In this document: positions 497-61,800 of the stretch, in pieces
Layout of the letters: the number at the start of each line of letters is the position of its first letter
Numbering within the stretch: the stretch's first letter is position 1
Assembly (NCBI GenBank): GCA_905178155.1
Contig: CAJINV010000002.1
Span: 7,160,743 to 7,224,742 of the forward strand
Direction: 5' to 3'
Source of the DNA: Amoebophrya sp. A120
Taxonomy: Eukaryota > Protista > Dinoflagellata
DNA length: 64,000 nucleotides
Notes under the pieces: generated by a model
What the model saw: only the letters and a program-made list of their open reading frames with translations
Told to the model about the DNA's origin: nothing
Databases searched by the model: none
Made by a program: the position numbers and the translations under genes

Positions 497-3400
497 ATGT
501 TGGGAGCGGGTTCTTCTAGAGCTGGCGCCAACGCAGCAATGGTGACAACTTCATCATCTTCCTCCCGTAGTGAGCGCGATTCGTGCAACAATGTGGCTGC
601 CGGTGGCGAGGTGGAGCTTCAAGACATGAGCCTGGGAGGGTTCCTACTGGCCGCAGAAGGACGGGGATACGAGCCATGTCTAAGAACTACGGACCATGAT
701 CATCTCGCTGGTGCGGCCTACGCACTGTCTGCTGGAGCAGGGAAAATAAACGATCGGCGCCTGACCTTTCCCTCTGCAAGCGTCTCGTCTGGAATAGACG
801 ATGTCGATGTGATGAACAGAGGAAGGCAAAAATCGGCACAGATCAAGAACAACAGGTCAAAGAAAACCACTTTTCTCTCACGGATACAGACCAGTTGCGC
901 AACCACCTTCCGGTGCTGCCCCTGCGGAAAAAGATCAGTGCTGGCTGAAGAGTTGTCACAAAGAAAAACAAGTAGCGAACCGACGAAATTCGTCGTGACG
1001 GTGATAATTTTGATTTGGCTTTTCTTTGCGGTGAACCAGATTTGCGCGAACCGCCGCTTCACGCGCGTTCTCGGCACGGAGCCTTGGTTTAAGATCTCTC
1101 AGCCTACGTTGTGCTGTACCGGATGCTTCTTCCTTTGCTGCTTCTTCAGCTTCTTTACGGACAGGTTTAAACCTCTGTTGCCCGGCACGGACTTGTGGCG
1201 AAGCAGGGCGAAGAACAGGAGCTGCGCCGATCAGCAGGCCGCGGTGGGGGGCACAGAAGAACATGCTGTGCCGAAGTTCGGAGCAGAAGGAGGGCGGGCT
1301 GCAAGGACAAGAAGTAAGAGCAACAGAAGAAAAAAGAAGAAGGCGAGATTAGCAAAGCTGCGACTGCAGACGGGCAGTGCCAATAGCACAATCCCTGCAG
1401 GTGGGATTGGATTTGGAGGAAATAGTGGCGAAATTGAGATGCGCAACTTCCAAAAGACCTGCAACGGTAAAGATCTAGAGTCAAGTAGAGCATCTACTTC
1501 TGGAGAGTCGTACACATCAAGCGAAGATGAAGGAAGTTCTTCTAGTGTGTCTTCTTCTTCTGACAGCGACGAAGATGTGGACGAAAAAGCAACAGGCACT
1601 CGTCCTGCAGGGCAAGGACACTTGCATCATGGTGCGAGGACTGACAAAAACCAGTTTCTCGTAAACCAAGATCCTACCCCAAGTAGTGCGCGAGGCAAGA
1701 ACACGACCGCGACAAGACCTCCGCTCCTAATTGCAGGCACGCCTGGCGCACCAGCGGATAAAGACGTCGATGACATGGAAAACGATAATAATGACGATAG
1801 CCCCCCACTGATTATTCCTAGCTACCAATACAAGGGGGTCTATCGCTCGCCTGCAGCCATCAAGTTCCGCGAATACGGCGGCACAAGCAGCGAGGGGGAG
1901 GATACCGCTTTTGACTTTCTGAAAGACGTCCATGGGAAGTCTGAGAAGGAAAAAAGAGAAGCAGAAAGATTGGCTCAAAAACGCAACAAAGCGATTGCGC
2001 ACGAGAGCTGTACTGCGAATGCTAGTAGTGGTGGCGCCGCCCTTGCGGTGGCCACAACTATTTCTCCACCCGCAAAACCACCAGCAGTGGAGGACAACTC
2101 GACGAAGCATGCCTGGCGGCAATTCCTGATCCCGGGAATCGCGCTTCCCTCGCTCCTCGCGACGCAGAAGAAGGCGCACCAACTCAACCCCGGCTCCCCG
2201 TGGCGCATGGAGCCACTGTTGCTGCTCTGGGTCTTCCTCTACGGCCAGTTTTTGAAGATGCGCGAGCGGAGGAGACACGCGCAAAGCGGAGGACCACTAG
2301 AGGAAAATTTCGTGGTATGAAATGCAAAAGCATCGTACTAGTAGTAATCGCATTACAAATTTGCTCAGCATGACAAATGGAATTTCTCATGCTGATTTAC
2401 CTTGAAAAAGAGATTTGTCATGCATAAATGGGATCACTACGAGTACGATACTTTTGCAGAGAATACGTGGCCGAAAACGTTGGCGAGTTTTTCCGGGATC
2501 ACTATCCTGTGCAAAAGTATCGTACTCGTATTGCAGTCATGCATTACAAATTTCTTTCTCAACTCAAATCCGCATTACAAATTTTATTTGTCATGCTGAG
2601 GGAATTTGTCATGCATTTATACGAGTGCGATACTTTTGCAATTCATAATCACAGGTCGCTGACGAAGCGGAAAAGCGACGAGGAATTGAACAAAGTTCCC
2701 TTGCTGTCAGCGGACGAACTGTTGCGGAAGTCGTTCTTCACGCAGGAAAATTATCCAAGTCATGGGGAACATCAAGGGCGTCATCACCGTCGTCGGAGCA
2801 GAAAAAGATCTTCGCACAATAGAAATCGGGACCACACCAGCACGACGACCACAATAGACGAAGAGAAAAAGTCCATCGCCCGGCTGACGCGCGACAGCAC
2901 GCAGGTGCTGTCAACGTTGCTGCAGGATATCAAACCTGTTAGTAGTGAAAACGAGGATGATCCGAATTGTCACGACGAGAACCTACAAAGAAACAAAAAG
3001 CCCCACGACCTAAACCAGTACTACCTCCCGGCGAACAAGGCCACCGCGAACGCCTCCACGTCCTCGACGACCTTACGCGAGACCAAGCGGCTCTCTCTGG
3101 TCGCCCTCGCTCTCACGACGGTCGGGGGTTTCGCTTCCGGGTGGATCCACCACGAATTCAGCATTTTTCACCCGGAGCACCACAAGAACGCGGAAGAGTG
3201 GGATCACTTGTACGAAAAGCTAGAGAGGGATCAGAACTTGCGCAAAGAGGAGCGACTGGAGCGGAAGCGGCAGGCATTCGTCGCAAAATACGGAACTGCT
3301 GGAACTTCTAGTGCAAGTAGCAGGCGGCAAAAAGGAGGACAGCAATTCGGGAGAGCAGGTGGTCATGCTGAAGCGCAAGAGATCGGCGAGGCGAGTGGTC

Positions 3401-6400
3401 CTCCACTGGACCGCGATGGAGTAGTCCTCGGTGGTATCGAAGAAGCTGACCCTCAACACCAATCCATCGAGCAAGTAGATGATGGGTTGTTGAACAGTTC
3501 CTGGGGCTCGAATTTCAATCGTATTGGCGACGAAACTAGAAGACACGTGGATAACGTGTTGGCGAGCATTTTCGGCAGTCAGCATTCGTTCAATGTAGGA
3601 GCTGCACGAGGACCAGGAGACGACGACACCATCGTTGCGGACGAAGGGTTCAATGAAAATGAACCGCGTCAAGGTAGTGGTCCTTTACACCATGATGATG
3701 ATCAGGAAGATCATGAAACTACCAGCAACAGTCGGAAGAAGAAGTACAACAGCTCCAGGACAGGGTCGACCTTGCAATCAGTCAGCGAAGAGGCTGGAGC
3801 ACAATCGGAAAGGGAAGAAGAGAGCGAGGACTTAGAAAACGTAAGTCACGGGGGATCTTCCGGTGCAGCAGCCTCGCATGTTTTTGAGGATCCGGATCCC
3901 AACGAGAGCAGCAGCACACCCGTAGATTCGACCGAAGAGGATGACGCCAGCCTTAATATGCGAAGCCGACCCTCCGCTCCAGTTGTTGTGATGAATTATC
4001 AGCCCCCGCGCGGTAGGCCCGCGGGTGGTGCGCAGAACAAAGCCTCCGCGTCAAAGTCAGAAGGTAGTGACGAGGAAGGCGGCTCTGGACCGCCTGGAGG
4101 AGTTGTGACTCTGGCGGACGGTCGTGCGGAAGGAGCGGTAGAAGAGGTAGACGACAGCATTTTTTCCCATTCTCTGCAAGATGAACAGCCGGATAGTATT
4201 CAAAAGTCCCGCTCTGACCCCACCGGGTTGCGTGGAGTTCCCGTTGACCAGCTAAATCGGAAGAAGCGGAAAAAAGAAAAGCGACGACCCACGCCAACGT
4301 CCATCATCACAAACTTCAACGAGGACGGAACTTCTGCACCGACATCAAACAACATGAAAAAGACCATTTCCGCCGAAGAATACGCGTGGAAGACCGGGGA
4401 TCGCGACTTGCTCTACGACCCGGACAGCACAGAAGACGATGTATGCTCTGCAAAAGTACTTATCATAATACGTATAAATTGCATTGCAAATTCTCCCAAG
4501 AACAAAAATGCAATTTGTCATGCTATTTCAGCTAGAAAGTTGCGTTGGATTTGTCCTGAATATCTGCAATTAGTACGAGTGCGATACTTTTGCACAGGAT
4601 ACAGCGACCAGTTTGACAATTTTCACTGGCACGCCGCGGTCTGGAAGTATCTCCACCAGCACAGCTACCTGCTCGGTGTGTTCGAAATTGGTCCGCACAA
4701 CGCAGAGTTCGTCGGATTGATTTTAGCACTACTGCACTCCATGTGCCAAGCGGTGTTTCTGGTGTCGAGTAAAAGCGCGCTATCCTCCGTGAAGGTGCCG
4801 GTGGTGGGGACGGGTAGAACAAACATGCTCAACAAAATGGCCAGAAATGGAGCAGGTGCTGGCCCAGGTGGATCAGCTACATCCTCTAGTGTGGTCGGTG
4901 CCACCACAACGTTGCCGCCAGGGCGCGGATTTGCAACGAGTTGCTGGATCGGCATGGTGTTCACATTGAGCATTGACGGTTTTATGTGGTTCATGGAACC
5001 GAAGGAAGAGGACATCCGCAGCCATCTGGCCGGGCACGGAAACACCGGAAGTTCCGATGAGGAGGACCCCGCTAGTACATCCCCATACTCATCAACCAGC
5101 ACTCTGGGAGGTGGTAACTCGGCTTCGCGAAACGCGTTCGACGATACTAGTGCTGGCGGAGATGAAGGCGATGGTGGTTCTGGAGGCTCGGCTTCGGGAA
5201 GTGGAAGTGCGGCAGGTGGAACTGGCACTGGTGGTAGGGTTGCCGCTGCAAAGAACCACGGTCCTCTTAAAAATAATATTGGAGCGAACAATGACGGCGC
5301 ATCGGGAGAGCAAGGGGCTCGCGGCCCGACGGCAGCCCCTGCCAATGCCAGTGGCTCAGCTCCTGTCTCTTCAGAAACCGCACCTCCACCTCCCCCCACG
5401 CCCTCGAAATCACCCGCAGCGGGCACGATGGGTCCGCCGAGCGAGCCGCGGTATTCCTCGAAAGATCATTACAATGCGAGAAGCATTACAAAAATCCCAC
5501 GGTCAGGAAGTCAAGAACTCCTCCCTCCCAGTCCATTTTCGCCCGCCGCGGCCTCGCAAGACGGAGGCTCCTCTTCCGACCGGGCGTCCAGTAAGGATAG
5601 CATCGTCAGCCGCAGCGTCCCCCGGCCGGACTTGACCCCGCGGGCCAGCGCGTTGAAGAAGAGGGGGCCGCCGCAGCAGCGGCCCAGCAGCAGCACAGCG
5701 AGCAGCAGCAGTTCCACCACAACATTTGGTGGGACGACGGCGATGCTGGGAGCTGGTGCAAATAGTGCCTCCTCCGCGTCGGACTTAAGTTCGTCACAGG
5801 ACGGAATGTTGACCAGCAACACCGGGGATAGCAGTAACAGTCCTGTCGTGTTTCGGCGGCCGAAAAAGAGGGTTACGTTTGACGGACAGGTGACCAAGAT
5901 TCGCCAGGGGGAAAACGGCCTGGTCTTTAGCTACGAGGAACCTGTGCACCGAGAGGAGCCTGGGGATTACTATTTGGATAGAATGCGGAACGACGTTTTC
6001 GCGGGAGATCCTAGCTTCAACAACCTCCTAGCTCAAGCTCAGGACCACGAACCACCCCCACCCGCACCCCCCCACCCGGGCCGCATCCAGAGGCAGCAGA
6101 CCCCGGTTGCGAGGTCTACGGGTCTCGCGGGGCTGGAGGATGTTGATGCGCTGTCGCATGAGGATGGTGAACCACAATCGTCGGAATTTCAAAATAGCAG
6201 TGTAAGAACCACTATTCATGATCCACCTGGTGAGCAGTCTTTATCTTCGTCCTCCTCGTCTTCAAGGGGACGCGCGGAGGAGCGAAGCGGGCGGGGTCGT
6301 GTACGAGGAGTTGCAGCACGACCAGAAGGGGAAGTTCAACATCAAGGAGTAGACCAGCACCAGCAAGGTGTTGATGGAGGAACTACCTCTTCACAGCGAG

Positions 6401-8956
6401 GAACAATTGCACCAACGCTAGGACATGGACAACAAGGAGCTCCGTCGAATAGCAGGCACTCCGACGACGCCAGGGTTTCGTTTGACGAATTCATGAACGA
6501 TCCGTACAACGAGGCAGAGGTGCCGACCGACAATGGAGAGGGCCTTTTTGTCGGTCGCCGGAAGAATATGCTGCGGGAGTTAGCCCCTGAAGGAAATCAA
6601 CGCGACACCGGCGCAGCTGCACCAAAGGACCTGGATAGCCAGGAGGTGAACAAGTTGAAAGGAATTTTTAAAAGCATACATAGGAAAAAGGCATCAACTG
6701 GGACTGCGGCTGCTGGAGTTGGGGGTGCTGGAGTAGGGCCAGCAGTGGGAGCAGGACAAGATGATAAGAAAGCAAACCCCTTGGCGAACAGCGGTCTTTC
6801 CGCGTTGTCGGGTTCGAAGCGATCCACTGGGCGGAGTAGTTCATCCACTTCGCAGCTCTCGAAGCAGAGCAAGTGGAAGGTCGTGCAAAATGCGATGGAG
6901 CACGGGGACTTGAGTGAGAAGGAAAAGAAGAAAGAGCGGGCAGAGAAGGTGTTCGATATCGTAAAAGCCATGATGCACCGCAGGAGCAATAAAGGTGGTG
7001 GCGGAGGAGCAGGACCACCTCCTGTGAGTCAAAGGGATCCAGCTGGTGGTGGGCCACTCGGCCCGCCGGGCGCAACCCCGTTTCACGGCAGTGGCAGCGG
7101 ATTGGGGAAGATTCTTGCGGGGCTGGGGGGCGGTGGAATAAGCAGTGGATCAGGATTAGCACAGCAGCCAGGCGGGGGGTCTAGGTCTTCAGGCGGGCAA
7201 ATAAACATGGTGGATGGTGGTACGACTTCTGACCAGTCCACTGGAGCAGGACAACATCAGGAAGACCACGACGGGAAAATTAACCCAGTTACCGGCTCCG
7301 CATCAGGCAAGCAGAGCATCTCCGAGCGGGACCACCTGCGGCATTGGGTGCGGTACTACCTGCTGGACTGGATGTGGATGAAGTCCCAGATTCTCACTGC
7401 TTGCAGCGTGTTTTTGATCTTTTTCTGCCAGTACGCGACCAAATTTTGGCTGGTGAAGACGCTGGACATGCTGAACATGACCATTGTCGAGTCGATCAAA
7501 ATGATCTGTACGGTGTTTTTGGTCACCATGTTCCTCGTTCCAGCAACAGCGGGGGGCGGAAGTGGAACTTCAACTGGTGGAGTAGGCGCAACAGGAAGTG
7601 CTAGTCAGTCCTCTGACAGTCAAGACAACTCCGGGGTGGTCTCCGAACTCCAGATTCTTGCCTGTCTCGTCACGATTGCCGGTGGCGCCTTATTTAAAAT
7701 CGCGGAGCACTACGAAAAGATGATCCACAGTCTGCACGACGAGATATGAGAGTGCACAACTCCCCCTCCCCCTCACTTGTATGGCATGAAAAGCAACACA
7801 ATCACCAGCACACCTGAGGCCTGAGCATGGCAAATTCCTGCGCCGACTGTAGTATTTTTGTTTGTTGGGTTTCCACCTGCATAATTTGTCATGCAAGCAG
7901 CGCTACAAGGGAGGCAGCGGCTGGATTTGGGATTTTGCGTGACAAATGATGGGGGAGGGTAGTTGTGCACTGTCAGACGAGAAGAAGAGCGTTGAGAAGG
8001 AGCGGGATCAGGTCGTTGGGACGATGAAGGGCCTCGCGGAGGTGGCGCAACTTCGGCACGAGCGGATGAAGCAGATTAAAGAGGAGGAAGAAAAGGAGAG
8101 AGAGGCCGAAAGGCAGCATGCTGCAGAACAAGAATTGGAGTTACAACAGCGCGAAAATATCAAGCGGCGATCGCACCGCACGTCGAATGATTCCACCAGT
8201 AATTCCTTCCGCCTTTTCCGGAAACCGCCCGAGGAAAAAAAGCGAGGAAACACGATGTCCAGTGATAGGATCAGCGTCGGAAGAGCTAGTGGACAACATC
8301 AAGTTCTTGTGCCCTCTTTCAAGAGGAGCACAGCGTCGAACAAAGCGAAAACGGCGAGTGGTAGGCTGAGTGGTCGGGGGGACAACACATCTGTGGCTGG
8401 TTCTTTGAACTTGAAGAACATCAAAAACGAGGCTGAGCGGAGAACTTCCTCTACCCGGGAGCGCCGGCAGTCCGCCGCGGGTAACAGGATAACGAGCCGC
8501 ACTGGCGAACATCACTTCACTGGGGTAGATGACCAGGAGGAACCTCACGACTTCAGGCGACATGTTGCACCGCGTGACCATCATGCTGCTGAACGCGGTC
8601 CTCGTCAAAGTGACGTACTACAAATAGACACGATCGCGGTCGAGTTGCCAGGTCTAAAAATCCGTGCTCAGGAATACGACCGAGAACTTGAACAAGAGTC
8701 AGCAATGGTGCAGCACAAAGACGGTTCGCACCGACAGTCGTGTACCTCCACGGCGTCGTCCTCATCTCGTGGTCTCAGTGTAACTCCTCCCTTCGCGTCT
8801 GGAGGTCCTCTTCGGAAATCCAAAGTGAACCGAATTCTTACCCGCCCGCGCGGATCCAAGGCGACAAGGGTCGCCGAAACCGAAATGGAAACACTTTGCT
8901 ACTATTCGGCTGGAACGAGCACGTGCCCGGCGACACTGTATCCCACATACGGATAA
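497..8956 (+). CDS. SLC35/triose-phosphate-transporter-like (DMT superfamily) membrane protein with very long low-complexity loops, about 2,580 aa after removing 4 TIR introns
   Basis: ORFs 155..2320, 2428..7749 and 7946..8956 join in frame when the elements at 2316, 2503, 4442 and 7745 (+5 nt each) are removed (ENFV|AENV, RDH|RSL, SLHDE|KKSV). About 9-10 hydrophobic segments; the C-terminal KFWLVKTLDMLNMTIVESIKMICTVFL...LQILACLVTIAGGALF resembles TPT/SLC35 helices 8-10. First ATG is at 497. Family call is by motif recognition. Confidence 0.6.
2316..2465. mobile_element. TIR introner, family A (150 bp)
   Basis: TATGAAATGCAAAAGCATCGTACTAGTAGT...ACTACGAGTACGATACTTTTGCAGAGAATA; perfect flanking direct repeat CGTGG; removing 155 nt restores the frame. 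Confidence 0.92.
2503..2647. mobile_element. TIR introner, family A (145 bp)
   Basis: TATCCTGTGCAAAAGTATCGTACTCGTA...TACGAGTGCGATACTTTTGCAATTCATA; perfect direct repeat ATCAC. Confidence 0.92.
4442..4601. mobile_element. TIR introner, family A (160 bp), decayed direct repeat
   Basis: TATGCTCTGCAAAAGTAC...GATACTTTTGCACAGGATA; flanks CGATG/CAGCG; element+5 = 165 nt, in frame. Confidence 0.85.
7745..7977. mobile_element. TIR introner, family F (233 bp)
   Basis: TATGAGAGTGCACAACTCCCCCTCCCCCTCACTTGT...ACAAATGATGGGGGAGGGTAGTTGTGCACTGTCAGA; perfect direct repeat CGAGA; contains the apparent stop at 7747-7749. Confidence 0.9.
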
Positions 8957-12114: not shown

Positions 12115-12757
12115 ATCCATACGAGGCTCGAGCGCGGATATTTCTCATACAAGTGAAGATGACGCTCGAATACCTTTGTGAGTGAGAAGACCAAGATCAA
12201 ATTGTATACATGATCCGACATATTAACTCACAGGAAAGGGAAACCCCAACCAGAAATACAGATGACTTTCTTCCAGTCGCGGTCTCATTAATTTTCGGTC
12301 GCAAAGAGAAAAAAATCAGATGAATCGATGTAGCTCATGGTCGTCCCCAGGGCGGGCACTTACAGTGCGTTCCAGCTCGGCGGATTCGCTGCTCCGCTTG
12401 AGCACAACATCAGAGAGACATGAGTGCAAAAGGAGAGAGGACCGGAGAAGTATCGAAGTAGAAATCGGGGTGAAAGAATTGCGCTTCGATTTCTTCACGA
12501 CCTTTGCGCTGTCACGGAGGGATAGAGAAAAGGGCGATGCTCGTCTTCGCAGCGGCAAATTCATAGCGGAGTGATTGTACGCGGCCTACGCCGCGGGAGC
12601 TACAACTCTCAATGTCGACGTTGTTGCTGGCTGCGATACAAGCCAAGACGGTGATTGCGCGTCCACAACCACATTGACACGCATGCATTTGTCTGTATTT
12701 CTGTATATAGAAGTTCAATCTTCTGGATCTCGTTGCTTGGGAAAGTGAGAAAACGCC

Positions 12758-25116: not shown

Positions 25117-25219
25117 TGAATTCTCCTAATGAAGGATCAAATCTAGTCGTTTATCACCTACAGACGACCCCTGAACGTCGTCCTCGCTTTGATTTATTGT
25201 GCCTGAGGGCTAGCGAGTC

Positions 25220-37914: not shown

Positions 37915-38139
37915 GGTTACACTTGTATACGATACAATTTGTATGATTCCAGATTGTCATCCTCATCATATCCATACCTCATAAGTATATCCACATCCGG
38001 TTGTATTGTGATAGACAATCACGATCAAAATTTTCATTGTATGATTTGCCAGAAACTATTAAACACGAAATAAAGTAGAGATAGAAACAACAAAGAAACA
38101 GGTTCGTCGCCCAGTGCTCAGGAGCTGCACCAGAACAAA

Positions 38140-46800: not shown

Positions 46801-49800
46801 GCAGGCAAAAGCATCACAGGTTTCGCGCACGCCTCATGATGCCTGTCCCGCATGAGAAACTTCCTACTTGCGTGCCAAGAAGTGGACAGCTTTTGGCGCT
46901 CATGCAACGCAAAATTTTGTGTGTTCCAGAGTTTGCATCACAAGTTCCAACCCTTCCAGACCCAGACACTTTTACATTTGATAGCGGAAAAGCAGCGGAG
47001 ACAGAAGCGAAAGAGAGTGCTGCAAATGCAGCGAAAGAACATTCGGCCAAAGGGGCATTTGCTGCGGCAGGAACTACTGCAACACCAGTCGGAAGAGCAG
47101 AGACGCGAGAAGCGCAAGGAGCAGATGTTCGGGGACAAACGGAGGAAAAAGCGGAAAAAATTTTTGAACGCAAAAACACAACTACAGACGAAAAACAAAA
47201 CGACTATAGAGAATGGTCATGTGTCCGAGTCCGACGAGGAGATTGCCACCGCCGCGGAAAACACAGCGTTTCTGCTCTCCGGTTACGAGATCAAGGGGTT
47301 TCGGGTTATCATAGAGGCCCGGTTGTTCCGCGTGAAACAGCGTATTAACGCGCTGGAGAAGAAGAAGGAGGAGCTTGCGCTCGTGATCTCCGAGAAGAAC
47401 AAAAAAGCCGGGCAAATTGTCGAAGCCGCGATGCAAAAGGCGGAGAAACTTTTGACCAGATTGTCCGCGCAACAGTTCACGGTGTTCGAAGTTTTTGCCT
47501 ATTTCCCGTCCTACGCGAACGGCGAAGACCCGGAAGACGAAGTGGACATTGACTTGCGGGAGATCTGGAAACTCGACCCAGGATTGGGCGAGGGCATCGT
47601 GTACCTGCGCGAACTGCTTGATCCCTTTGTACTGAATGGGAAGCACCTGGGGCTGAAGAACGATAATATGGGCGCTGCAGCAGGAGGAGGAAAAAGCAAT
47701 CAAGCGAAAATAGCAGCTGCCTCCGCAAGTAAAGGCCAACAACTGTGGAACTACACGAATGTCGAGAGCATTGACGTGGAGGTGAACGAAGCGGAAGTTG
47801 CAAAAAACGCAACTGGTGACGACGACCCGTTTTCGCTCGATTCGAAACCCCTCGTATGCATTGCAAAAGTATCGTACTAGTATAAATTGCATCACAAATT
47901 TTGGCAAGAAGAAAAGTGGAACTTGTAGTGCTGTTTTACCTTAGGAAGGAGATTTGTCATGCATATTTGCAATTAGTACGACTACGATACTTTTGCACAG
48001 GATACCTCGTAACCCGGTACAAGCTGTGGCGGGACAGGAGATATCGACTGTAAAAATGTCTGGGTCTGGAAAAGTGAAACTTGTCATGCTAAATCTGAAT
48101 CATACAAAAATCTGTGTTGCATGATTACGAATAAAGCTGTTCACTTTTGAGAAGGCCGAGAGGCAGTTTGTCATGCGGAAAAGGCATAGTAAAGATCTCA
48201 CAGAATCTGTGATGCTACGGCATGCATCACAGACCTCACACGTCATGCAAAACCTGCATCACAAGTCTGGCATTCTTCCAGACCCAGACACTTTTGCAAT
48301 CCATAGGAAACAGCACGGACAGATCTTCGAGAAGGAGCAGAAATTCCGGGAGCTGCAGCTGCGGAAAGCGCAGGGTGCGGTCGACGCCGCAAAGCAGTTT
48401 TACCAGTCCGAGCAAACGAGGCATCTGCAGAAACACGCTGGCGGAGCGGCAGGTGAAACAACGAAGTACAAACTGCAGCCCACGTCGACGTTGTCGCACG
48501 CGTCGCTTGCCGGTGTCGCGAGCATCATGGCGCGGAAGGTGAAGGCGTTGACGAGCACGGGAGATCCATCTTCAGAGGACCACACAGGCGAGAAGAATCT
48601 CCAGGATGCGATGCACGCGCAAAACCGAGAGCACGAACTGGAGGAGAGAAGTGCCGATCTGAACACGGTTTGCATGCTTTTATCCCACCTCCACGGCCAG
48701 CGGGCCAACGTGCTGACGAAGTTGAAGCAGCAGCAAAAAATCGAGCAACAGCTCGAAGAAGAGCGGAAGGAGAAGGAACGGATCGAGCTCGAGAAGCAGA
48801 AACGGGCACTGGACGTGACCACCAAATTTGTGCAGCTGAACGACGCGGAGAATTACCCGGTGGAGCTGCAACTCGACCAGGCCATTACCAGGGCGGAGGA
48901 GAGGCGGTTGGAATTGCTCACGCAAGATATTGAAGACATCTCGGAGTTGTTGGCCAGCGCGGTGGCGAAACGGAAGCAGTTGGCGGAAGAGAGAATGTTC
49001 ATGGAAAACAAGCGCGACGCGAACGTGAAGAGCGTTCTGCTGAAGAGCCAGGAGCGGCGGGAGTTGGAGGAGAGGTTTGTTGAAAATTGCATGAACGAAA
49101 TGAGTATGCATTGCAAAAGAACTATCGTGATCGTACTAGTATGTATTGCAGTGCAGCACGAGACACCAATTCGTTGCTTAGCTAATTCAGCTGGAAAAAA
49201 TTGTCATGCTATCTAATACCAAGTACGATCATACAGATACTTTTGCAATGCATACTGAGGTGGGAAGATTTGGAAAAGTGCTCCAGCAAAATGTTACGCG
49301 ACACGTACAAAGTTACGCAGGCAATCGAGGCTGGGAACAAGAAAAGCAAAGATAGTGGGGAAGTAGAGGAGCGACCAAAGGGCGGGAGCACGACCCAGCA
49401 CAGAGAGGCTTCATCTACAACTTCTGCAGCAGCTGTAGTTGATGAACAAAATAAAGTCCTGCAACAGGTCGAGAAGGGCTACCAGGAGCATTTGTCGAGC
49501 TTTATGGAGAACATCCGTAGTTTGAAAAACCACAGCAAATTCGGCGACGTGGAATTGGAGCAGAAAGCACATCTAGAAGCGCTGCAACAGTTCCGCAAGG
49601 CGTTTGGGCACCACAACTTGGAAAAAAAGGAGCTGAAGAAGGCGTTGCATTTGTTGAACAAGTTATCCACAGAAAAACACCCATCCACATCCAATTTGTC
49701 ACGCAGAACACGTATAAAATCGCGTGCTTGTCATGCAAAAAATGGATGTGGATGGGTTTTTTTCTGTGGATACAAGTTTAAGGAATTCGACACCACGGTC

Positions 49801-52800
49801 GTCGAGGAGGTCAAGAAGTTCGAGAAAGAGATCAACTTGGAGAAACTCCGGATCTCCTCGGAAATTCGGGATTGCGACCAGGAGGACATTCGCGAGGAGT
49901 TGCGGATGGAACGGAGGAGACTAGACGTCTTAGACCGTGACTTGATCGACCACATGAGCGCTTTCCGGGAAATCGAACGGCAGGAAGACCGGATTACGCG
50001 ACGCATGAAGGAAAGCGACCCGGGCTTGGAGATTTCGCAGCCTGGTGGAGGAGATCATGGGCAGAAGACGAGGAACATAGGGGCATTGATGTTGAACAAA
50101 GCTGAAGCTCGTGATCACGATCAACAAGAAAGTGCTGGCGATCCTGCTCCAAATAAAGCTCCAAAAACCGCGGCCACTGCGGCGTTTTCCGGCCTGATGA
50201 CCATCCTTGCGCACAAGGTGGCGAGCAACAGTGACGTGCAGGGAGATGTGAAGACCGCTACGGAGAAAGCGAGCGGGAAGATGAAGATGAAAATGACCGA
50301 TGGTAGCTCTGACGACGAGAATCAGAACAATGATTCCAGTGGAGAACAAAGAAGCAAACAAGCTTCGTCCACGCAGCAAAAACGACTGACCATGCTGGAC
50401 CTGCTTCGCGACCGACACATGCTGCAAAAACTCCTGGTCCACGCGCAACATGCGCTCTTCTCCCGGCGACAGCTGCTGCAGAAAGTCCGGCGACAGAACT
50501 TGCGAGCGCCCAAACCGGATCGCCTGCTAGACGTTCTGTGCGACGAAGAGGTTCGGTCGATTGATTCCCAGTTCCGCTGGCACCACGAGCTGGAGGCGAA
50601 CATGCAGCAATCGTTGCAGCCGAGACTGTTTTCCGCACTGGATGCGACGACAATCTCGACGGTAAAGCAGCTCGAGCAGTACGAAATGATCACGGCCGAT
50701 TTCCTGTACCAGTTGAACCTCCGTCATCGCCTGATTTCTAAGCGCGCGGAGTTCCGGATTCCCATCTGGGCGGAGCTGGAAACTTCGACCAGCTTTCCGG
50801 AAGCGTTTATTCCAGACGAAATGGGAATCGACGCGATAGGAGATCGTGGAGGAATAGAACTACAAGAAAACAGCAGCGAAAAGCTTCTTGAGCATGACTT
50901 GGTTACCACCTCTCTGAAACCACTGGACAATGTTCTGCTCCACATCGCGGACCACGATGCGCACTACGACGTACAGGAAATCATGGACGATGTCCAGGGT
51001 GCGGACGAGAAGCACGGCAAGCAGATGAATGGCCTCGTGAAGTTGGGGAATCAAGCCCCGGAGGGAGAGCAGCAAGGAGACGGCGCAGCAGCACAGCCGA
51101 AAATGAAATCCGAAGAAATCGTCAAAGCGGAGGAAGAGCTCGCGAACTTGCGAAAAGAGGCAGAAAAGTTGTTGCAGGATAAGACGTATCCTGTGCAAAA
51201 CTACCATACTTGGTATGAAGAATTCAAATTGCAGTCATGCGACCTGATATATAAAAAGTAGTCTCTTTCCAGAGCATTACAAATGCCATTTTTCACAAGT
51301 TCATTTTTTTTGATGCAATTTAGTAGCTTGAAGTATGACACTTTTGCCATGCATAGCACTCTCCCGGCGGAGGAAAGAAAGAAGAAGTGGCTGGAACTGA
51401 TGGAGCACGAGATGGACGCGGAGAAGCACCTGGAAGCGGTGCAGGCGAAGGTAAAACTGCTGGAAGTACATATCCTATTTAAAAATGTCCCTACCCCATA
51501 GTTGTAATGCAAATCTGCATGCTGAAAATGTTTCTCATGCGGAGCCCCATGAGAACCATTCTCTAGTCGTGTTTTGAAATTTGTCATGCTCCAATCAGCA
51601 TGGTATGCTAGATCTGTGATGCTGCTCAGCTAGCTCAAACAGCACTACACTACGAATCCAAATTTGTCATGCAAAACAGCCAAAACTTGTGGATTTGTCT
51701 AGCCGATTCCCCATCTTGCCTATGGTGTGGGGACGTTTTTACTCAGGATACTACACCAAGGGGGAGAGGACGGGGATCCGCACTCTTCCACAACAGATAT
51801 GGAGAAAAAGATGCAGGATTTGGTGAACAAAGACGGACAGGAGCCAGAGATGAAAGAAGAATCTACCGGCGCCAGCCTGCAGGGGCTGATGACCGTTTTG
51901 GCCATGCGGGTGAAGCAGTCCGCGGCCGTCGCGAAGGCGGAGGAGGAGGCGAAAACTCAGCACGCGAAAGAGGTGAAAAAGTTCAACGAGAACCGGGTAA
52001 TGTCGGCCCTCGCGGACTTCTCCAAGGCGAATAAGGGTGCGGCGGTGCTGCACGCGAAGGCGTTAGACGCACTTTCTAGTGCGGCTGACTATGGGAAAAA
52101 TGACCGAATTGAGGTGCTGAAAGCCGTCACGACCATTAGTAAGCAAGAGGCGGAGGCGGTGAAGAAGTTTAAGTTGAAGGAAAGAATCAAATCCCTCTTG
52201 GTGCCAAAACGGGACCCGAATTACGTTGCGAAAGAAGGCGAAGGAACCGAAGCGCTAGAAGAGAAAGACGTGTTTTACCAGTTTATGACGGGGGAAACCG
52301 AGAAGAAAATCGCTGAAGCGTTGGCCGCGGAATCACTCACCGAGCACGTCGAGACCGATGTCGGCCGCCTGGCGAATTTGAAACTGAAAACGCAGGCGAA
52401 ACTGGCGAAGTTGCGGAAAGAAATGAACGAAACCGCGAGGAGCAAGAAGGAAGACGAGGAACAGGCGAAACAGACCGCGGAGCAAGAGAAAAAAACCGCG
52501 GAGCAAGAGAAAAAAACCGCGGAAATACTGGAACACGCGAAACAAAGAACCCTGGAGCGCAGCAAAGGGAATCAGTTAGACATTGAAGAACAGAAAAACA
52601 ACCTCGCGGCTTTTGCGATCTTGAAAGACCAAGAACACACAATCGAAATGATTTCCAAAGAAGCACAGCAGGTGACCACTGCTTTCGCGGGTTTCTTGTC
52701 CGATTGGACGGAGAAGGTGACCGACCTGTTTGAGGATGAGGAGGTGCTGAAGGAGAAGCAAAAGCGGATCGAGGAGGCGAAAAAGCGAGTATCGGAAAAA

Positions 52801-55800
52801 ATCGACGACTTGGAAAAGCGCGAAGAGGAACTTGCCGCGGAAATTAAGAAACGAAAAGAGCAATCCACGGCGCAACTCCTCCTTTCCGTCCGGTCAGTGA
52901 AAGTGAAGAACGCGTTCCAGGAGATGATGAAAAAAAAGAAGCAGTCGATGAACGCGTCGGAGCAAGACGAACTGGAGAAGCACGGCGATTTTTTGTCAAA
53001 GGTCGCGAATCGAATGGCCTTATCCGGAGGAATTTCGGCAACGGATAAGAAAAAATCAATCGAAGACCAGAAGCGGAAGCAGGAGCTAAAGACCCTTCTG
53101 AAGACGAAACTTACCGCGGTCAAGGACGAAGTGAAGATCAAATCCATTTTCGGAAAGATGACGGGGCAGGATTCCAAAGTGCGATTTGAGGACGATGCGT
53201 TGTTCGACGAATCTTTCGAATTACAGACTAAATTAGACGAAGAACAGCGAGCGAAAATGTCGTACCAGCAGCTCGCCGACACGAAGGACGCGCTGAAAGC
53301 GCTCGCGTCGGAAGCAAGACGAATCGGTCTGATCCAGTTCCTACTTGCTTTGAAGCGCGGCTCGTTATTTTCCGCTTTGTGGGGGGAAGAGGAGTTAGAG
53401 TTGAAATACCCGAGGACCGGGAACCAGCGGGGCACGAAGCAAGCGGCGTTGCGAAACGCGGATCAATTGCAGGAGGTCGAGGCTGTGTTCAAAGTTCTCG
53501 TTAAGGAGATGGTGTTCCGGAAAAAGGAGAAGCAAAGCGTAAGGGGGAAGAAGCTCGCTAAGCTTGACACTGATTTGGAGTTGGCGAAGAGTGAGTTGAA
53601 GCAAGCGGAGGAGGATTTTGTCAAAGAGAAGGAAAAGCTACAACGGCAAGAATCTTCCGGGATGAACACGAGCAACAAACAACTCCAGGTCGAGGTGGCG
53701 GAGAAGCTGAATAAATTCGAAATCGAGTACAAAGCGAATACGACGAAGCTTCTCCGGAAACAGGGCCAGCTAATCAGTGAGAAGAAACAGATCAAGGGGG
53801 ACCAATTCGCCGAAAGGTCCGAGAGGGAAGAGGTTCTGGACCACTTCTTAGACTACTTGCGAGCTGTTTTGTACCACTCTGGCGAGACGACCGGGCTGTT
53901 TCTAGCGACGTTTCAGAGCAAGAAGGAACTAGCGGAGTCGGAGTCGAAAATTGTAGAGGAAGATAGCGCGGCGGCCGGGGCTTTGAACGGCAACAAGGAC
54001 AAGAGTTCCTCTGAAAACAGCAGTTCCTTTTACCAATCTGACGACTACAAAGCGGAAGCGGCTTTGGACCTGATCCTTCAATACTTGGAGGATTACTACG
54101 CCGATCTCATCGCAACGAAGGAACAGCTCGTGCCGAAGACGAAAAACTACTGGCGTGAGCAGGTGAAAAAGCAGAAAAGGTCCACGCTTTCCGAAAGGCT
54201 TCTGCGCAGAGACGTCGGACTGCGGGAAAACTTGTCGGGAGTGGGAAGTAGCAGTTCTTTCGGAGGGCAAGCGGTGGAGGAGGAGGTCAGGAAGTTGCTA
54301 GATTCGAACCGGAAGGAGAAGAAGGAGGTGATCCAAGAGGCGCTGGAGGTGTTCGATCAGAAGACGATCGAAAATCAGACGGGCGAGTTTGTGGAGAAGC
54401 CGTTTGTGACCTATTTGAATGTTCTGAGTCGGAACACTTCGGAGGAGCTCGTTGCGAAGCTCGCGTCCTCGTCGAGCGGTTCGTTTTTCTACAGCAGTAG
54501 GCAATTGTTCGAGCCGAATGTTGCGGAGTTACTGTCTTTAATCCTCCCCTTTTCCGCGGGGGAAAGACTGGAGTTCGATGCCGTCACCTTACATCAAGAC
54601 TTGGAGCAAAAAGCGTACCAGATCTGCGTGAAAGTCTTCGAGGAAACAGACAGCGGGAAAACGGAGATCTTGCTTCTCTGCGACTTGTTTTCCCAGCTCC
54701 TCGGCAGGGAGAAGCAGTCCTGTCGGGAGCTGGCGCGGAAAGTCATCGTGCGGAAGATCCTGTTGTCTAACCCGCAAGAAGTGCTGGAACAGATAACGCC
54801 GGAGACTTTAGAAAATACTAACCAAAACAGCCCGGATGTTGACCTACAGGGGGATTTTGCCTACCTCGACCGAGTGACGCCGGATTTCACGAGTTCGAAC
54901 GCGAATGGGGTCGGGGAAACCGCTGCAGGTGGATCTTCGTACATGCAAAAGCAGAATAGCCATCTGCACGAATCCTTCGGGCGGCTGGCGATGGCGTTGG
55001 TGTTTGGCCGTTACAGGACGTACGTGGAGGAGTTGCATTGGAAGAACGTGGACGATGTGATTGAAGAAGGTTCCGCTTTTCCAGAGGAGGAAATGAGTCG
55101 GGCAATGGTGAGACTGCGGGCTTTTGAGCAAGAATTTCTCATCCGGAAAACGCCCACCATGAAATTTGCGGATAATGGGCGGGGCGGGCAGAATGGCGGA
55201 GCTTCTGCGGATACGGATCATGTGAACGCGATGAACTCTCCGATGATGTACTACGGAGAGATGGAAGCGATCTCGTCGGGCAAACGAATGTTGAAAAAGA
55301 AGAAGCTGTCTAGCAATGACAGACTGGGATCATCATCGTCAGGATCCGCGCTTGGCAGTGGATTTGGAAATAGTGGTAAATCGAAAATGTTGAGTAAAAA
55401 GAAGCAAAAGAGCATGATTTTCTTCGGTCGTTCCGCGACGCTGGACCAACTCCCCGAGTACCCGACAGCGGTTGTCCCCGGGAGAGACGGCATGGATGAC
55501 TTTGTTTTCCGAGACGTACTGGGTTTGGATACCAGCAAACAGGGTGGTTTAATATCCCTCGCGTCGGGTGACGAAACGAAGTACCTTCTGGATTCCCACA
55601 AATTGCTGATCGCGACGGTTGCGCGGATGATGCGGGCATTGGCATTTTCGCTGGAGTACACCACTTTTTTGAAGCACAAGTTCCTGGAAAACCCGGATTT
55701 GCTGTCCAGCAAAACGGCGTCCGGGGCCTCGGATTTGAAGCTGGCGCGGAAGCATTTTCGGTTCATCCAAGATTTTAAGCGCGGGATTTTGGAAAGAGTG

Positions 55801-58800
55801 AACACACTGCAGATCCGGCTGGCGTTCGAATTCTTCTTCAAGACAGACGTCGCGGACAAATACATCGACTTGGAGCGGAAATCGCTGGGCGAGCCGGTGC
55901 CGGTTTTCTCGGAAAATTACCCGAACGCGTACGAGTTTCAGGTCTTTGGATCGGGCGAGGCGCTGTTCTTCGCGAACCAATTTAGGAACGCTTTGCCGGT
56001 CATTTTGAACTGCGACGAGAACACTTCCAGATTGCGGAAGGCGAACAAAGCGGAGCAGGAAGGAATGCGGGCGCAGTACGGGGGAAGAGGTGCTGGTGGG
56101 GGCAAGAAAATGAAAGGCGCAGGAGGAGTTAGTGAAGTTGATGACCGAGGAGGGTCGAATAGTAGAGCGTCGGGGGATCAAACTTCTTCCTCCAAAACAG
56201 AACAGCACCAGCAAGACGGCACGTTGGCCACCGATCCAAATCAAGACTACGCCTCGATGTTTGCGGAGTTTGTCACGGCACAGGCGGAGGGGTTACGAAG
56301 GAACCACCTGATACTTCACGACAGCGACTATTTTGGCTACCTCCCGACAGACCGCGACAGCAAGAACAGCCACGAGCCCCTGTTTCAGGTTTCGGACCTC
56401 ATGCCTTTCGTCGAAGCAGTGAATCAATTTTCTTTGCAGGCGGTGCAAGTCCAAGATCTGCTTGTCCTGTTGGCCCATGGCGGGGAGGAGTGGTCTTTGC
56501 GGCATCAGCAGAACATCAGTCATCAACAAACGGCGCAACAAGCAAGAACCTCCGACAGTACCGCGGCAGCGGAGTCACTCAAACAACTTTCGGACCAGAT
56601 GCGGAACTCGAAATTTTTCGAATTCTTTCTGCACGAGACGGAGGTGGTGCGACTCCCGGAGGAAAGGTGGCGCGAGGCCGGGGACCCACTTTTAGAGACG
56701 GGGGAATTCGACTCAGATGGTTCGAGCTTCGAAGAAGTGGAAGTAGAAGCGAACAGTTCTCCCGGGATCAAGAAAACCAATGGTACGGCGGCCGCCCCGG
56801 TCTTGTTCATGAATGATGCTGATTATGGTCCGCCTGCGCCGGGCACGCAGCCGCAATCAACACGAGGTCGAGCAGGGCTAGCTGTTTTTTCTTCACGCGT
56901 AGGAGCTGGTCCGACAGCCAACACCGGAATTTTGAAACACGATGAAGATACAACTACAACAAACAGCGAGAAAAAGTTTCGCTTCCCACCGTCTTCTTCT
57001 GCAGCACGTAGTACCTCCCGTGCGAGGGATAGGTTAGCACATCCGGAGAGCACGATGAAGATGAAACAAACGCCAAGTTTTTGCGCGTCGCCCTTCTCCT
57101 TGCTTTTCTCAAGTCAGCAAGCTGCGACCACGCAGGCTGAAGTTCGTGAAGATGACGACGACTTGACAAGCGAAGTGCAAGCGCTCGATCATAATTCATC
57201 CGACGACGAAGGAACAAGTGGCCGCGAAGGAGTAGTAGACCTGTCCCCCGGCGATTCCCTAGTCTACGGCCTAGAGGACGATGTTGAGGCTGGGGACCAT
57301 GATGACAGCAATGGTTTTCATCCGAAGTACGCCGAGCGGGTGGGGGCTGGAAGCTACAACTCCAGTCCCTACCGTCTCCTCTCCTCGAGCACAGGAGCTT
57401 TGCACTCTACATCGTCACTTCGACCGAATTTCCTCTTCTACAACGACAGCAACACGAGTACAACCGCCCAGAAAATCTTTTTCATCGACGAAAAGACCAT
57501 TCCGAAACCGCCTTCCGAACCCGTCCCCTTCCTGTACGGCATGCTCAGCGCCAGTTTGTCTTCCAGCAAGTACCGGGAATTCGGGATTTCCGGTTGGGAG
57601 CAGCGGTCCATTGACAAAGATGTCGTACTGGCGGACGAGTCGGAGATATCCGGGACGGACAAAGTCCGACAATTATTCGGTATCAAACTGGACTGGCGGA
57701 AGTTTCCGATCGTTTTAGTTACCGAAGTGGACGAAAAAACGCCAGACGGGTCGGACAACTCCCGGGCGACGAAGGGAGGCATCGTGGTCGGGGATATGCT
57801 GGTGTTGATCAACGGCGAGCGAATCACCACCGTCGCGCAATTGCGGATCGATCCCGCCACCGAAAAGAAAAACGCCCATCCGGACAGCGTCTTGATTTCC
57901 ATGGTGGCGAAGCGGGTGAAGGCGGAAAAGGCGACCATTTGCTCCTGGCTGTTCCTGCGGAAGAAATACCAGTGCCAACTGCGGCAAATTTCCTACAAAC
58001 CGGGAACGGATGGGGAGTTCGGGATTACTAGGTTTCTCGACAACAGCTGCGAGATCTCGGAAGTATCGGATACCTCGAGCGAGCAAAATTGGGCGAAGAA
58101 AAACGAAGTCAAAGTGGGAGACTCGGTATTGTTTTTCGACGCAGATTTTTTGCTCAAGAGACCGGAAAAGCTCTCTCTACCCGCGACCACAGCGAAGAAC
58201 TCGGTGGAAGTGCTGGTGTTTCGCAAAATGCCCGGCTTTGACAAAAGACTCAACGAATCCAACGTGGCGAGACCACTATCTCCGACGTGGGAGCAGCTGA
58301 TCCAGAGATTCACGTCGAAGTGGGAGGTTGGAACAGGTACAAGTACTGGCGGTGGAAATGCAGCAGCCTCAGCAAGCTTCGCAGGAAACAAACCAGCGAT
58401 CACTTCCTCTCTCGCGGCGTCCGCGTCTTCGTCCAGTTCCGTAGTTCCTTCTTCCCTCAAGCGGGTCTGCAACCGGTCCGCGCCTCCCTCCACGCAGTTC
58501 CTATACGCGATTCTCGCGGCGTCCATAAAAGCCGATAAGTACGCCGATTTCGGCATGTCGGGGTGGCAGCAATCCAGTGTCGATGAGCAAGTGCTCGACG
58601 ACGAGCAGCTCACTTCTGACGAGAAGATGATGAAATTGTTCGGGATCACACTCGACTGGCTGAATTTCCCCGTTGTCACGGTTTCGAAACAAGAAGCGGC
58701 GAACGCAAACGGGGAAAAAACGCGGGCCGCGAGCGGGAACATTGTCGAGGGGGATATGCTTTTACTGTTGAACGGGGAACTATGGAAGCGTCAGGATTGA

Positions 58801-61800
58801 AATCGTCAAAGTTGAAATAATTTGTAATGCATAAAAAGCGACGCAAAAAGTGACTCTATTGCAGAGGACCCACGGGAGGCAGATTGTAGTCCTGGTAAGG
58901 GTCAAAAGTTGGACTGCTAACTACCATGACAGAAGGCAGCTCTTTTGCCCTAAACCGCATGACAGACTCGCTTTCAGGACAGGGAAAATCTGTCATGCGC
59001 CGACTACAAACTGTAGGTCTAACGTGTATGCGTTTTATGCATGACAAATTATTTCAACTTTGTCGATTTCAACTCTGACACATCCATAGGAACGAGTGAC
59101 GACCATTGCGCAGCAGTCCTCCACGACTTTCCCAGACCCGAACGAGGCGGTGTTAAGTTTGGTCCGGAAGCTACGTATTGCAAAAGTATCGTACTAGTAG
59201 AAATCGCATTACAAATTCGGCCAGCATGACAAATGGAATCTGTAATTCGGGTTTAACTTGACAAAAAAATTTGTAATGCATAAATGCGATTGCTACGAGT
59301 ACGATACTTTTGCACAGGATAGAAGCAGGTAGTCGAAAAGCAGAAGAAGGCCCAGTTCATCTTTTTCCGGAAGAAGTACCAATCTACTTTGATCCAATTG
59401 CAAGTGACGGAGGAGGACGCGAAAAATTTTACCACTTGGGGTATCACTGTCTCTGAAAAGGCGAAAGTGACGGAAATTGAGGAAGGGATAGAGGAGGAGA
59501 CCTCTTTTGCGAAGTCCAACAGTTTGCAAGTGAACGATCAACTGATCATTATCGACTCCGATTTTGTCTTCGCGAAACCGGACAAGATGCAGGCGTATCT
59601 GGACAAGAATAACGGAGAGCCTGGCTCGGTCATGAAGGCGGGCACGCAAATTTTGGTGAAAAGACTGCCGCCAGGGTTTCCGGAAGCGTTGAGAATACGG
59701 GAGGCAAATGTGGAGCGGGCGTTGTCGAGTAAGTGGCAGAAGTGGGTCAACGAGAAAGCCGCGTCGAGTGGCGGACAAGTTCAGCTGCCGGGTGCTGCTG
59801 CTGCTACGACGGTTGCAGCTGATGCTCAGGAAAAAGAGCCGGCACCGGCACAGTCGATGACAAAGTCAATGTTGGTGGGAGGAGTCTCCATGAAGGGAGG
59901 GGAGGAGTCGATGACAAAGTCAACGAAGGAGAAGTCTCCATTTGCGTCCATGGCCGAGCCAGCGCCGTCGATGACGAAGTCGATGTTGATGGAAAAGGAA
60001 AAATCTCCGTTCGCCTCAATGGCCAAAGCGAAGGAAATTATGAAAAAGGAAGAAGAAAAGCCAAAGCCAGGTGTGCCTGCTGCAGGAGCGGAAAATACAG
60101 CTGAGAGGACAGCAGTAGCTCCAGCTGCTGCTGCCTCGTCACCTGGAGCTCCTGCCGCTTCATCCTCCGGTCATCTCTCTCGTCGTGTGAAAGACACGTC
60201 TTCCCCACCTACGACCCAATTCCTGTACGGGATTCTCGCTGCGAGTCTGTCCGGGAGCCAGTACGCAGACTTCGGGATTTCCGGCTGGCAGCAGTCGTCG
60301 ATCGACGAAACTGTTTTGGACGACACAAATTTGACTGCGGATGAGAAAATGATGAAGCTGTTCGGCGTCCACCTGGACTGGATCGATTTCCCCATCGTGA
60401 CCGTTTCGAAAATGCAGGAGAAAAACGAGAATGGCGAGCCAACTCGAGCGGCGAGCGGGAAAATTGCGGAGGGGGATTTGTTGTTACTGATCAACGGAGA
60501 ACGGGTCACGACCGTCGCGCAACTGGAGAAGCCGGCGGACGGGAGCCCCCCGCCGGCACATCCGAACGACGCGGTGTTGGCCATGATAAAGAAACAGATC
60601 GTGACCAAGCAAAAGAAGGCACAACTCTTGTTTTTCCGAAAAAAATACCAAGACACGTGGTTTCAGTTCCAGGTGACCGACGAGGACAAAAAGAACCACG
60701 CGCACTGGGGCTTTCTCGCCGCGAACGGGAAGGTGAGTGAGATTTTGAACGCACCGACGGAGAACAAGAAGCACAATGACCCGGAGCACCCCTACCATTC
60801 TTGGGCCGCGAAGAACAAACTCGAGGTGAATGACAAGATCCTCTTCGTCGACGCCGACTTCATATTGAAAAAGCCGGAGAAATTGGACCAACTGCTGCTG
60901 GATCACCACCAGAACCCGGAGTACGACTTGCCCATGAAGCACAAAGCCGGGACGCAGGTCTTGGCCTTTCGGAAGCCACCCGGGTTCCCGGCTGCGCTCC
61001 GGGTCAGGGAAAGCGACGTGGAGCGGAAATTCGGGCGGAGGTGGGAAAAAGCGGTCGGGCGGGTGGAAAGCGACACAGTACAACATCAGCACAAGGAAGC
61101 CGTCAGCCCGGCGAGCGCTTCCGCTGTAGTGAAACCGGAGCCAGAATCCATGAAGTCGTCTACAGCAAAGACTTCTGCGGGTGAAAGTGCTGCGGCAGAG
61201 CCAGAAGTAAAAGCGGCCGCCAAGACGAGCGAGGCTGTAGAGAGAAAAGACGGAGACCAAGGAAAAGCTCCTTCCACAACGGCCACAATGAAGGCGGAGC
61301 TTGAAGAGGAGCCAGACGACGCTTTTTCCCTCCTCGCGAAAGACAAAGAAAAACTTTCAACCACCTATACTGGGTTGAAGTTGAAGGAAAAGCAAACCCC
61401 AACCCCGATCTTTCACTACGGTCTACTTGCGGCGAGTCTGTCGAGCAAACAGTACGGGGAGTACGGTTTCACGGGTTGGGACCAGAAGACGATTGACGAA
61501 AAAGTTTTGAGCGACGACAGCCTGTCCACAGAGGATAAAATGTTCAGGCTGTTCGGCCTGACCCTGGACTGGTCCGGTTTTCCCATTGTCCGCGTGAAGA
61601 AGCTGGATTCCGCGAACAAAACCGCGAGGGCGGTGAACGCGGGGGTGGATCTCGGTGCGATGTTGCTGCTCGTGAACGGGGAGAGAATCACTACAATCGC
61701 ACAGCAGGTGAAGGAGTACCCGAAGTCGCCGGACCAAGCCATTCTCGGACTCTGCCAAAAACGGTTTGAAGCCGGGAAGCGGATGGCGTTTTTGTTCTTG

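Follow-up and report, generated by a model that had tools for sequence, protein, structure and literature searches.

The DNA analysed here is a 64,000-nt window from Amoebophrya sp. A120 (GC content 51.6%, against 51.2% for A120), which carries a dense set of short, transposon-like elements that interrupt the coding exons of predicted genes. A recount gave 32 elements of 96–363 bp, as an earlier note on this DNA had proposed, in six gene models and not in the five genes that it had listed (Table 1). The ends are nearly uniform, again in line with that note: 29 elements start with TAT, 31 end with ATA, and both ends are present in 28. All five positions of the 5-nt flanks match in 13 elements, where 12 had been claimed, and four positions match in 8, as claimed; a further 4, 5 and 2 elements match at three, two and one positions, respectively. 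The three examples that the note had singled out were all found in place.

These elements are the introners published for the same strain by Farhat et al. 2021 (PMC7789003; citations here refer to particular passages, tables and legends of the sources), because the host, the TAT-N7-AAA end motif and the direct repeats agree. The phenomenon is thus already known. The published A120 set comprises 66,565 introns with RNA-seq support, more than 60% of them non-canonical, and the introner inverted repeat is given as TAT, seven variable bases and then at least three A. Both descriptions also share the lack of coding capacity and the presence of GT-AG introns in the same genes. They differ in that PMC7789003 gives direct repeats of 3–5 nt and variable splice positions, whereas we find a uniform 5-bp duplication and one register of cutting that suits every protein-resolved junction. 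This fixed cut rule is possibly the unpublished part: we found no statement of a fixed register in the text of the Amoebophrya and Syndiniales literature, subscription papers and the figures of PMC7789003 lying outside this scope.

Element borders were set by us at TAT and ATA. A detector blind to the flanks, which requires 21 or more of 30 bases to pair between a TAT and an ATA end, picked out 18 window elements, against a single match in 10 block-shuffled windows, and the list was extended to 32 by following reading frames. In the detector set, flank identity averages 0.86 at a duplication length of 5 and 0.24–0.33 at lengths 2–4 and 6–9, which is chance level, so only a 5-nt duplication fits. 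The measured end profile is TAT-[CG]-NNN-TGCAAAA, and 26 of the 32 elements fold better as RNA than their shuffles at z ≤ −2 (eight shuffles each). Five families of 2–6 copies were recognised, with relatives in 147 loci (L001–L147) analysed from a wider sample, in which metagenome contigs scanned with the commonest end motif gave at least 149 stretches. Within the loci, the duplication is perfect for 202 of 273 elements and matches at four or more positions for 245. Copies of the families run either with or against the host gene. With terminal inverted repeats (TIRs), a duplication of fixed length, short size, multiple copies and both orientations, the elements have the hallmarks of miniature inverted-repeat transposable elements (MITEs). 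A sub-terminal motif, CAT[GT]ACAA, is present in 233 of 261 loci elements, with a density of 4.25 per kb that falls to 0.03 per kb in exons, and is a putative transposase binding site.

Removal of each element plus 5 nt leaves all six gene models without internal stops, including the 2698 codons of host gene 1 and the 5867-codon giant model with its 12 elements, which bears out the restoration of frame that had been claimed. When the element plus 3, 4, 6 or 7 nt is removed instead, 1–142 internal stops appear; retention would shift the frame for 19 of the 32 elements. The INCENP-like model (548 codons, no internal stops) was reached by re-choosing one GT-AG acceptor, and its IN-box match (PF03941, E 0.0035) lies below the cut-off. 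Homologs (P0002–P0004) came from strain AT5.2 (hereafter AT5), whose introns are almost all GT-AG according to a published report. Among the 23 junctions examined against them, 13 align gap-free, and three host proteins are 43–68% identical to AT5 over the aligned parts. The rebuilt motifs on which the earlier note relied also hold up (the slash marks the junction): LLNGE/RVTT at 58781 matches three paralogous repeats, and PML/CILF and the DHP/SVQK of NAP1 match AT5 homologs. Searches gave no A120 protein for either NAP1 or the giant gene, no homolog for locus L024, the most informative junction, and no PDB match for a 29-aa exon of L141. The counts given here exclude family motifs of L075 and L141. 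By frame phase, 74 of 86 loci elements keep one 5-nt copy (the 86 come from 116 that passed the filter, of 213), which demonstrates that the exons were intact at insertion and is not evidence of splicing. The AT5 homologs of the genes at 31948–36878 and 43741–54885 are numbered g16681 and g16679, and these near-adjacent numbers suggest that gene order is conserved.

GT-AG can be read within the duplicated bases of a single window element (29570), so that the other 31 agree with the earlier claim on this point. Among the loci elements, 122 of 362 could be oriented by the filter used, and 8 of these show GT-AG in any register. Ordinary GT-AG introns do occur in the same genes, as had been noted; seven were modelled in three element-bearing genes. 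Nearby GT-AG sites, raised at the outset as an alternative, offer an in-frame pair within 12 nt at 15 of the 32 elements.

Evidence on the position of the cut comes from a deposited protein. An exon query retrieved A120 GSA120T00009650001 (P0001) with 100% identity over 152 amino acids, a 722-aa protein whose annotation derives from transcript alignments and which maps to 31948–36875 in 11 exons. All ten introns correspond to an element plus 5 nt; GT-AG lies in a compatible position in none of them, and P0001 uses none of five nearby in-frame GT-AG pairs. We define the register (0–5) as the number of left-duplication bases that survive in the message. A perfect duplication makes the junction unplaceable; where the two copies mismatch, the protein shows which left-copy bases survived. 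With all ten introns at register 4, no differences arise over 722 aa, while uniform registers 0, 1, 2, 3 and 5 give 6, 5, 3, 1 and 3 differences, respectively. Register 4 is also the only one common to the eight protein-resolved junctions (seven in P0001 and one in AT5 P0004), and the chance of any shared register among eight junctions with independent random registers is 0.020. In the AT5 homolog of the giant gene, 13 residues are identical across the junction at 45307 only in registers 3–4, and the AT5 homologs alone leave registers 3–4. Furthermore, register 5 creates a stop at 29772, and registers 0–3 create one at L041:2518–2775, a locus with weak gene context. Taken together, this makes N-TAT...ATA-NNNN the likely intron, cut one base before TAT and four after ATA. 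In the loci, the first duplicated base falls at codon position 3 in 61 of 122 elements (p 0.0005), which would mean phase-0 introns if register 4 holds; a target preference is an equally possible cause of this uneven insertion phase.

Table 1 Host genes and interrupting elements of the window, with left/right 5-nt flanks and the registers compatible with protein evidence.
Feature	Positions	Strand	Family or ends	Flanks	Host gene	Remarks
Host gene 1	155..8956	+				large protein, no Pfam match, 5' limit provisional; 2698 codons; 4 elements
Element	2316..2465	unstranded	family A	CGTGG/CGTGG	host gene 1	
Element	2503..2647	unstranded	family A, opposite orientation	ATCAC/ATCAC	host gene 1	
Element	4442..4601	unstranded	family A	CGATG/CAGCG	host gene 1	
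Element	7745..7977	unstranded	AGA end	CGAGA/CGAGA	host gene 1	
NAP1 gene	21531..23895	+				1 element; GT-AG introns 22158-22417, 22746-23336, 23533-23718; Pfam NAP; AT5 homolog P0003
Element	21603..21860	unstranded		ACCCG/ACCCG	NAP1	junction gap-free against P0003
Small host gene	27343..27726	+				72 aa, start approximate; 1 element
Element	27400..27560	unstranded		CCTGG/CCTGG	small host gene	
INCENP-like gene	28001..30966	+				start approximate; 4 elements; hand-placed GT-AG introns 28322-28506, 28752-28938, 29298-29395
Element	28055..28231	unstranded		TGAGA/CAAGA	INCENP-like	
Decayed element	28977..29204	unstranded		GCGTT/CTTTC	INCENP-like	
Element	29570..29711	unstranded	family A	GAAGG/GAAGG	INCENP-like	sole GT-AG reader, in -1/+4 register
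Decayed element	29772..30057	unstranded		CATTG/CACGT	INCENP-like	cut right at TAT gives stop in model
Multi-pass membrane-type protein gene, GSA120T00009650001 (P0001)	31948..36878	+				10 introns, all element plus 5 nt
Element	32263..32569	unstranded	family B	CCTTC/CCTTC	P0001	
Decayed element	32654..32987	unstranded		TTTTT/CCCTG	P0001	registers 3-4
Element	33176..33272	unstranded		CCTGA/CTTCA	P0001	registers 2-5
Element	33808..34089	unstranded		TGCTG/GGCTG	P0001	registers 1-5 (PML/CILF)
Element	34356..34662	unstranded	family B	TTGCG/TTGCG	P0001	
Element	34874..35236	unstranded	TAC start	GTGTG/GTTTT	P0001	registers 0-4
Element	35423..35721	unstranded	TTT start	GCGTG/GCGTG	P0001	
Decayed element	35787..36035	unstranded		ATGAT/ACGAA	P0001	registers 0-4
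Element	36158..36310	unstranded		ACGCG/ACACG	P0001	registers 3-5
Decayed element	36396..36716	unstranded		GTGCC/GCCTC	P0001	registers 4-5; only protein-resolved junction excluding register 3
Giant gene	43741..64000	+				at least 5867 codons, weak PDZ matches, leaves window; 12 elements; GT-AG intron 45676-45888
Element	44899..44994	unstranded		GTGAG/GTAAG	giant gene	
Decayed element	45307..45568	unstranded		ATTGC/AACGT	giant gene	AT5 homolog RKL/YGEK, registers 3-4 only
Element	46401..46584	unstranded		ATGAG/ATAAG	giant gene	
Element	46721..46983	unstranded		GCGGG/GCGGA	giant gene	
Element	47855..48004	unstranded	family A	CCTCG/CCTCG	giant gene	
Element	48042..48305	unstranded		GGAGA/GGAAA	giant gene	
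Element	49105..49254	unstranded		ATGAG/CTGAG	giant gene	
Element	49664..49772	unstranded		CAAGT/CAAGT	giant gene	in-frame, stop-free; similar-sized gap in homolog
Element	51187..51355	unstranded		AGACG/GCACT	giant gene	
Element	51471..51750	unstranded		GTACA/CTACA	giant gene	
Element	58781..59088	unstranded	family B	GGAAC/GGAAC	giant gene	interrupts one internal-repeat copy (NGE/RVTT)
Element	59172..59321	unstranded	family A, TAC start	GAAGC/GAAGC	giant gene	

The ends of the elements outlast their interiors. In the 11 copies whose duplication matches at three positions or fewer, 1 of 33 terminal-three positions is unpaired, whereas over positions 8–14 the figure is 30 of 77 (p 5e-5). This comparison is open to ascertainment bias from our placing of the borders at TAT/ATA; the ten P0001-defined introns, which are less exposed to it, have 2 of 30 terminal and 25 of 70 inner positions unpaired. 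An inserted copy gains nothing by keeping its ends, and host selection for splicing is therefore the likely force that keeps TAT/ATA while the inner repeat decays. At register 4, the donors of the 32 elements would read GT (17), CT (6), AT (5) and TT (4), and the acceptors would comprise 14 different dinucleotides; all 32 would have T at +2, and 31 would have A at +3. Selection for a +1 G seemed plausible from the window (17 of 32) and was rejected on the loci, where G at duplication base 5 occurs in 41 of 122 elements and the mirrored C in 38 (p 0.78). No AG enrichment was found at the 3' cut among the 122 oriented loci elements. Many elements (47855–48004, 51471–51750, 59172–59321 and others) have a pyrimidine run followed by CAG in the 3' repeat, 4–6 nt before the end; a G-TAT donor joined to this acceptor look-alike would throw the message out of frame. 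CAT[GT]ACAA was also considered as an orientation-specific branch point and ruled out, as it shows no asymmetry.

As to the origin of the elements, no autonomous copy or transposase linked to TAT/ATA ends was identified in the window or in the 147 loci. The loci contain six long end pairs. Two long GC-rich elements, L006:505–1608 (1104 bp) and L026:4523–5337 (815 bp), have clean TAT/ATA ends and perfect 5-bp duplications; the one open reading frame scanned, in L006, has no Pfam match. Viral contigs gave 0 matches. The Ginger2/Tdd group, whose transposase resembles Gypsy integrase, shares the 5-bp duplication, which is reported for TDD-4 and TDD-5, whereas Ginger termini read TGTNR (PMC2836005) and those of the window elements TAT. 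Gozashti et al. 2025 report one A120 family in which TIRs accompany Copia-related frames, and family 38 of A120 is Copia-integrase-like (PMC12130899). An integrase-like mobiliser would thus be a plausible source for the elements, but counts as a lead and not as a finding.

Sequencing runs were compared with positions 40001–60000 of the window. Run X8 contains a contig identical to 40001–43222 at high depth, which matches without differences in a part where the reading frame is uninterrupted; the other signal in this region comes from element copies from elsewhere. In run X7, about 300 RNA reads hold a copy related to 51644–51750 whose flanks belong to a different locus, which means that transcripts retain some of the copies. 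Because the runs missed the interrupted exons, removal at the RNA level rests on the literature and on transcript-based P0001, which indirectly supports the absence of 10 of the 32 elements from mRNA.

In the reading that we favour, with a probability of about 0.55, these published introners are excised at a fixed register, probably by a relaxed U2 spliceosome that needs neither G at +1 nor AG at the 3' end. A DDE transposase acting in trans would insert the elements in either orientation, and, the two ends being mirror images, both orientations would present the same 5' splice site, N-U-A-U-(G/C). The end-to-end stem, or the terminal AUA, would place the 3' cut four bases on, whatever those bases are. 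A 5' cut one base before TAT and a 3' cut four bases past ATA make the intron equal to the element plus 5 nt; the mRNA would then keep left-duplication bases 1–4 and right-duplication base 5, and the pre-insertion message would be restored. Host selection would retain TAT and ATA as the remaining repeat decays. The A120 splice code would accordingly read 5'-N TAT ... ATA NNNN-3', a formulation to which we give the same probability: end bases would be irrelevant, any of these elements would serve as a ready-made intron wherever it lands in an exon and whichever way round, and the 3' cut would be counted from a paired triplet and not set by an AG.

All seven modelled GT-AG introns start with GTA, and register 4 would give the elements the same U at +2 and A at +3, which tips the balance towards a relaxed U2 spliceosome and away from a second pathway. 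The first and last guanines of an intron pair together in the spliceosome, so both requirements could be relaxed together. In strain A25, the repeat starts with TTA and all nine predominant intron classes start with TT (PMC7789003), which again yields U+2 and A+3. The same source reports nearly all spliceosomal proteins, no minor spliceosome, and the introner repeat layout in 15% of A120 GT-AG introns. According to a tunicate study (PMC13326754), low U6 methylation goes with a preference for U at +4, and the U2 spliceosome can adapt to non-GT-AG introns. Of the earlier proposal, non-autonomous TIR transposons excised as element plus 5 nt are upheld by the transcript-based A120 protein, AT5 and Farhat et al. 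2021; its 'second' pathway fares less well, a modified U2 machinery fitting somewhat better.

Several observations weigh against a fixed register read by a relaxed spliceosome. A single protein-resolved junction (36396) rules out register 3, and it lies in a stretch without a homolog and has a nearby GT-AG alternative in another frame, and the register evidence as a whole consists of one deposited protein plus homologs. A stop-codon test made without a coding model gave three cases among 39 of 97 elements, one of them with a stop at registers 3–5; the test is uninformative, because the frames of both L044 cases conflict with the coherent minus-strand frame. The Fig. 3 legend of PMC7789003 describes splice sites as variable relative to the hairpin, and six large annotated A120 families (among 22 of 58 rows of Dataset S2 of PMC12130899) have 24–34% AG acceptors, more than register 4 predicts. 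Table S4 of PMC7789003, with T at +2 in all nine predominant A120 classes, is compatible with register 4 and, for this reason, no proof of it. The AG excess suggests that aligners place ambiguous junctions inside perfect duplications by rules of their own. Alternatively, the element plus 5 nt could be spliced with a cut free to slide inside the duplication, and the shared register 4 would then reflect chance or annotation. Such sliding would suit the variable positions described in the Fig. 3 and Fig. S23 legends and a base of just eight resolved junctions, seven of them in one gene; left versus right codon preference at mismatched loci duplications decided nothing. We consider it unlikely, given that a shared register turns up in 2% of random draws, that the transcript fixes the residue where the duplications mismatch, and that AT5 residues independently require registers 3–4.

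Concerning the machinery, there is neither GT-donor enrichment in the loci nor any difference between the 5' and 3' sides in repeats or sub-terminal motif (p 0.38), so nothing specific to the spliceosome is visible in the sequence; a terminal pair is predicted at a probability of at least 0.5 in only 20 of the 32 elements, and U1 small nuclear RNA is reported as undetected in A120 (PMC7789003). These points, apart from the terminal pair, would suit a separate, non-spliceosomal or dedicated machinery that reads the paired TAT/ATA of the same elements and cuts at −1/+4 in the fashion proposed for euglenids, as would the symmetric conservation of both ends in old copies, the lack of AG preference and the folding of 26 of the 32 elements. 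Euglena has a comparable code of a paired motif at fixed spacing (PMC12501133), and its introns leave as circles (PMC11282704). We hold this alternative to be possible, with the odds against it: U+2 and A+3 sit exactly as in GT-AG introns, in A25 likewise with a different repeat, GT-AG introns share the introner layout, and Fritillaria provides a precedent for a U2 spliceosome acting on non-GT-AG introns (PMC13326754). Finally, none of four runs covers an element junction at 40001–60000, and in RNA runs X5–X7 there are copies of the elements whose flanks belong to other loci, which means that some transcripts retain elements. Both observations would fit DNA removal in some nuclei or stages, in the manner of internal eliminated sequences, or no removal and dead genes. 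This is very improbable in view of the RNA-seq-supported introns mapped against the assembled genome (PMC7789003), frames intact up to 5867 codons, the conservation of three host proteins with AT5 and the transcript-based P0001.

Among known systems, euglenid nonconventional introns (PMC12501133, PMC11282704) resemble the elements, on the reading favoured here, in having a paired terminal motif that sets the cuts at fixed spacing without GT-AG, a probable MITE origin and coexistence with GT-AG introns. Their code, N3-CDG...CH'G-N5-6/R, differs from N-TAT...ATA-N4, and the euglenid signature is absent here; circular products are reported for euglenids. Introns of Fritillaria borealis (PMC13326754) are likewise TIR-bearing and transposon-derived, and are handled by a U2 spliceosome with altered recognition. 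They favour AG-AC and AG-AT ends, while the window elements have no fixed end dinucleotide beyond T at +2; Fritillaria has duplicated U2AF genes, and Table S6 of PMC7789003 lists one U2AF65 and one U2AF35 per Amoebophrya strain. Compared with U2 spliceosomal introns in general, the elements lack GT-AG ends (1 of 32) and would share U at +2 and a purine at +3 if register 4 is right.

Elsewhere in the window, a 35-nt AT-rich repeat occurs five times at 24570–25120, between NAP1 and the next gene, and is unrelated to the TAT/ATA elements. A continuous frame of 1333 codons without a Pfam match spans 38074–42072. Long frames (704, 416 and 2134 codons) in which no element was detected occupy 10000–20255, where those at 12749–13996 and 13854–20255 overlap in different phases.

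If true, the compact splice code would account for the signal-free look of some two thirds of A120 introns. A fixed register would replace 'no clear splicing signature' with a specific, testable rule that defines a target for lariat or circle sequencing. It would also mend gene annotation in a group that defeats standard aligners, and would show by what means a transposon can invade coding exons without cost to the protein.

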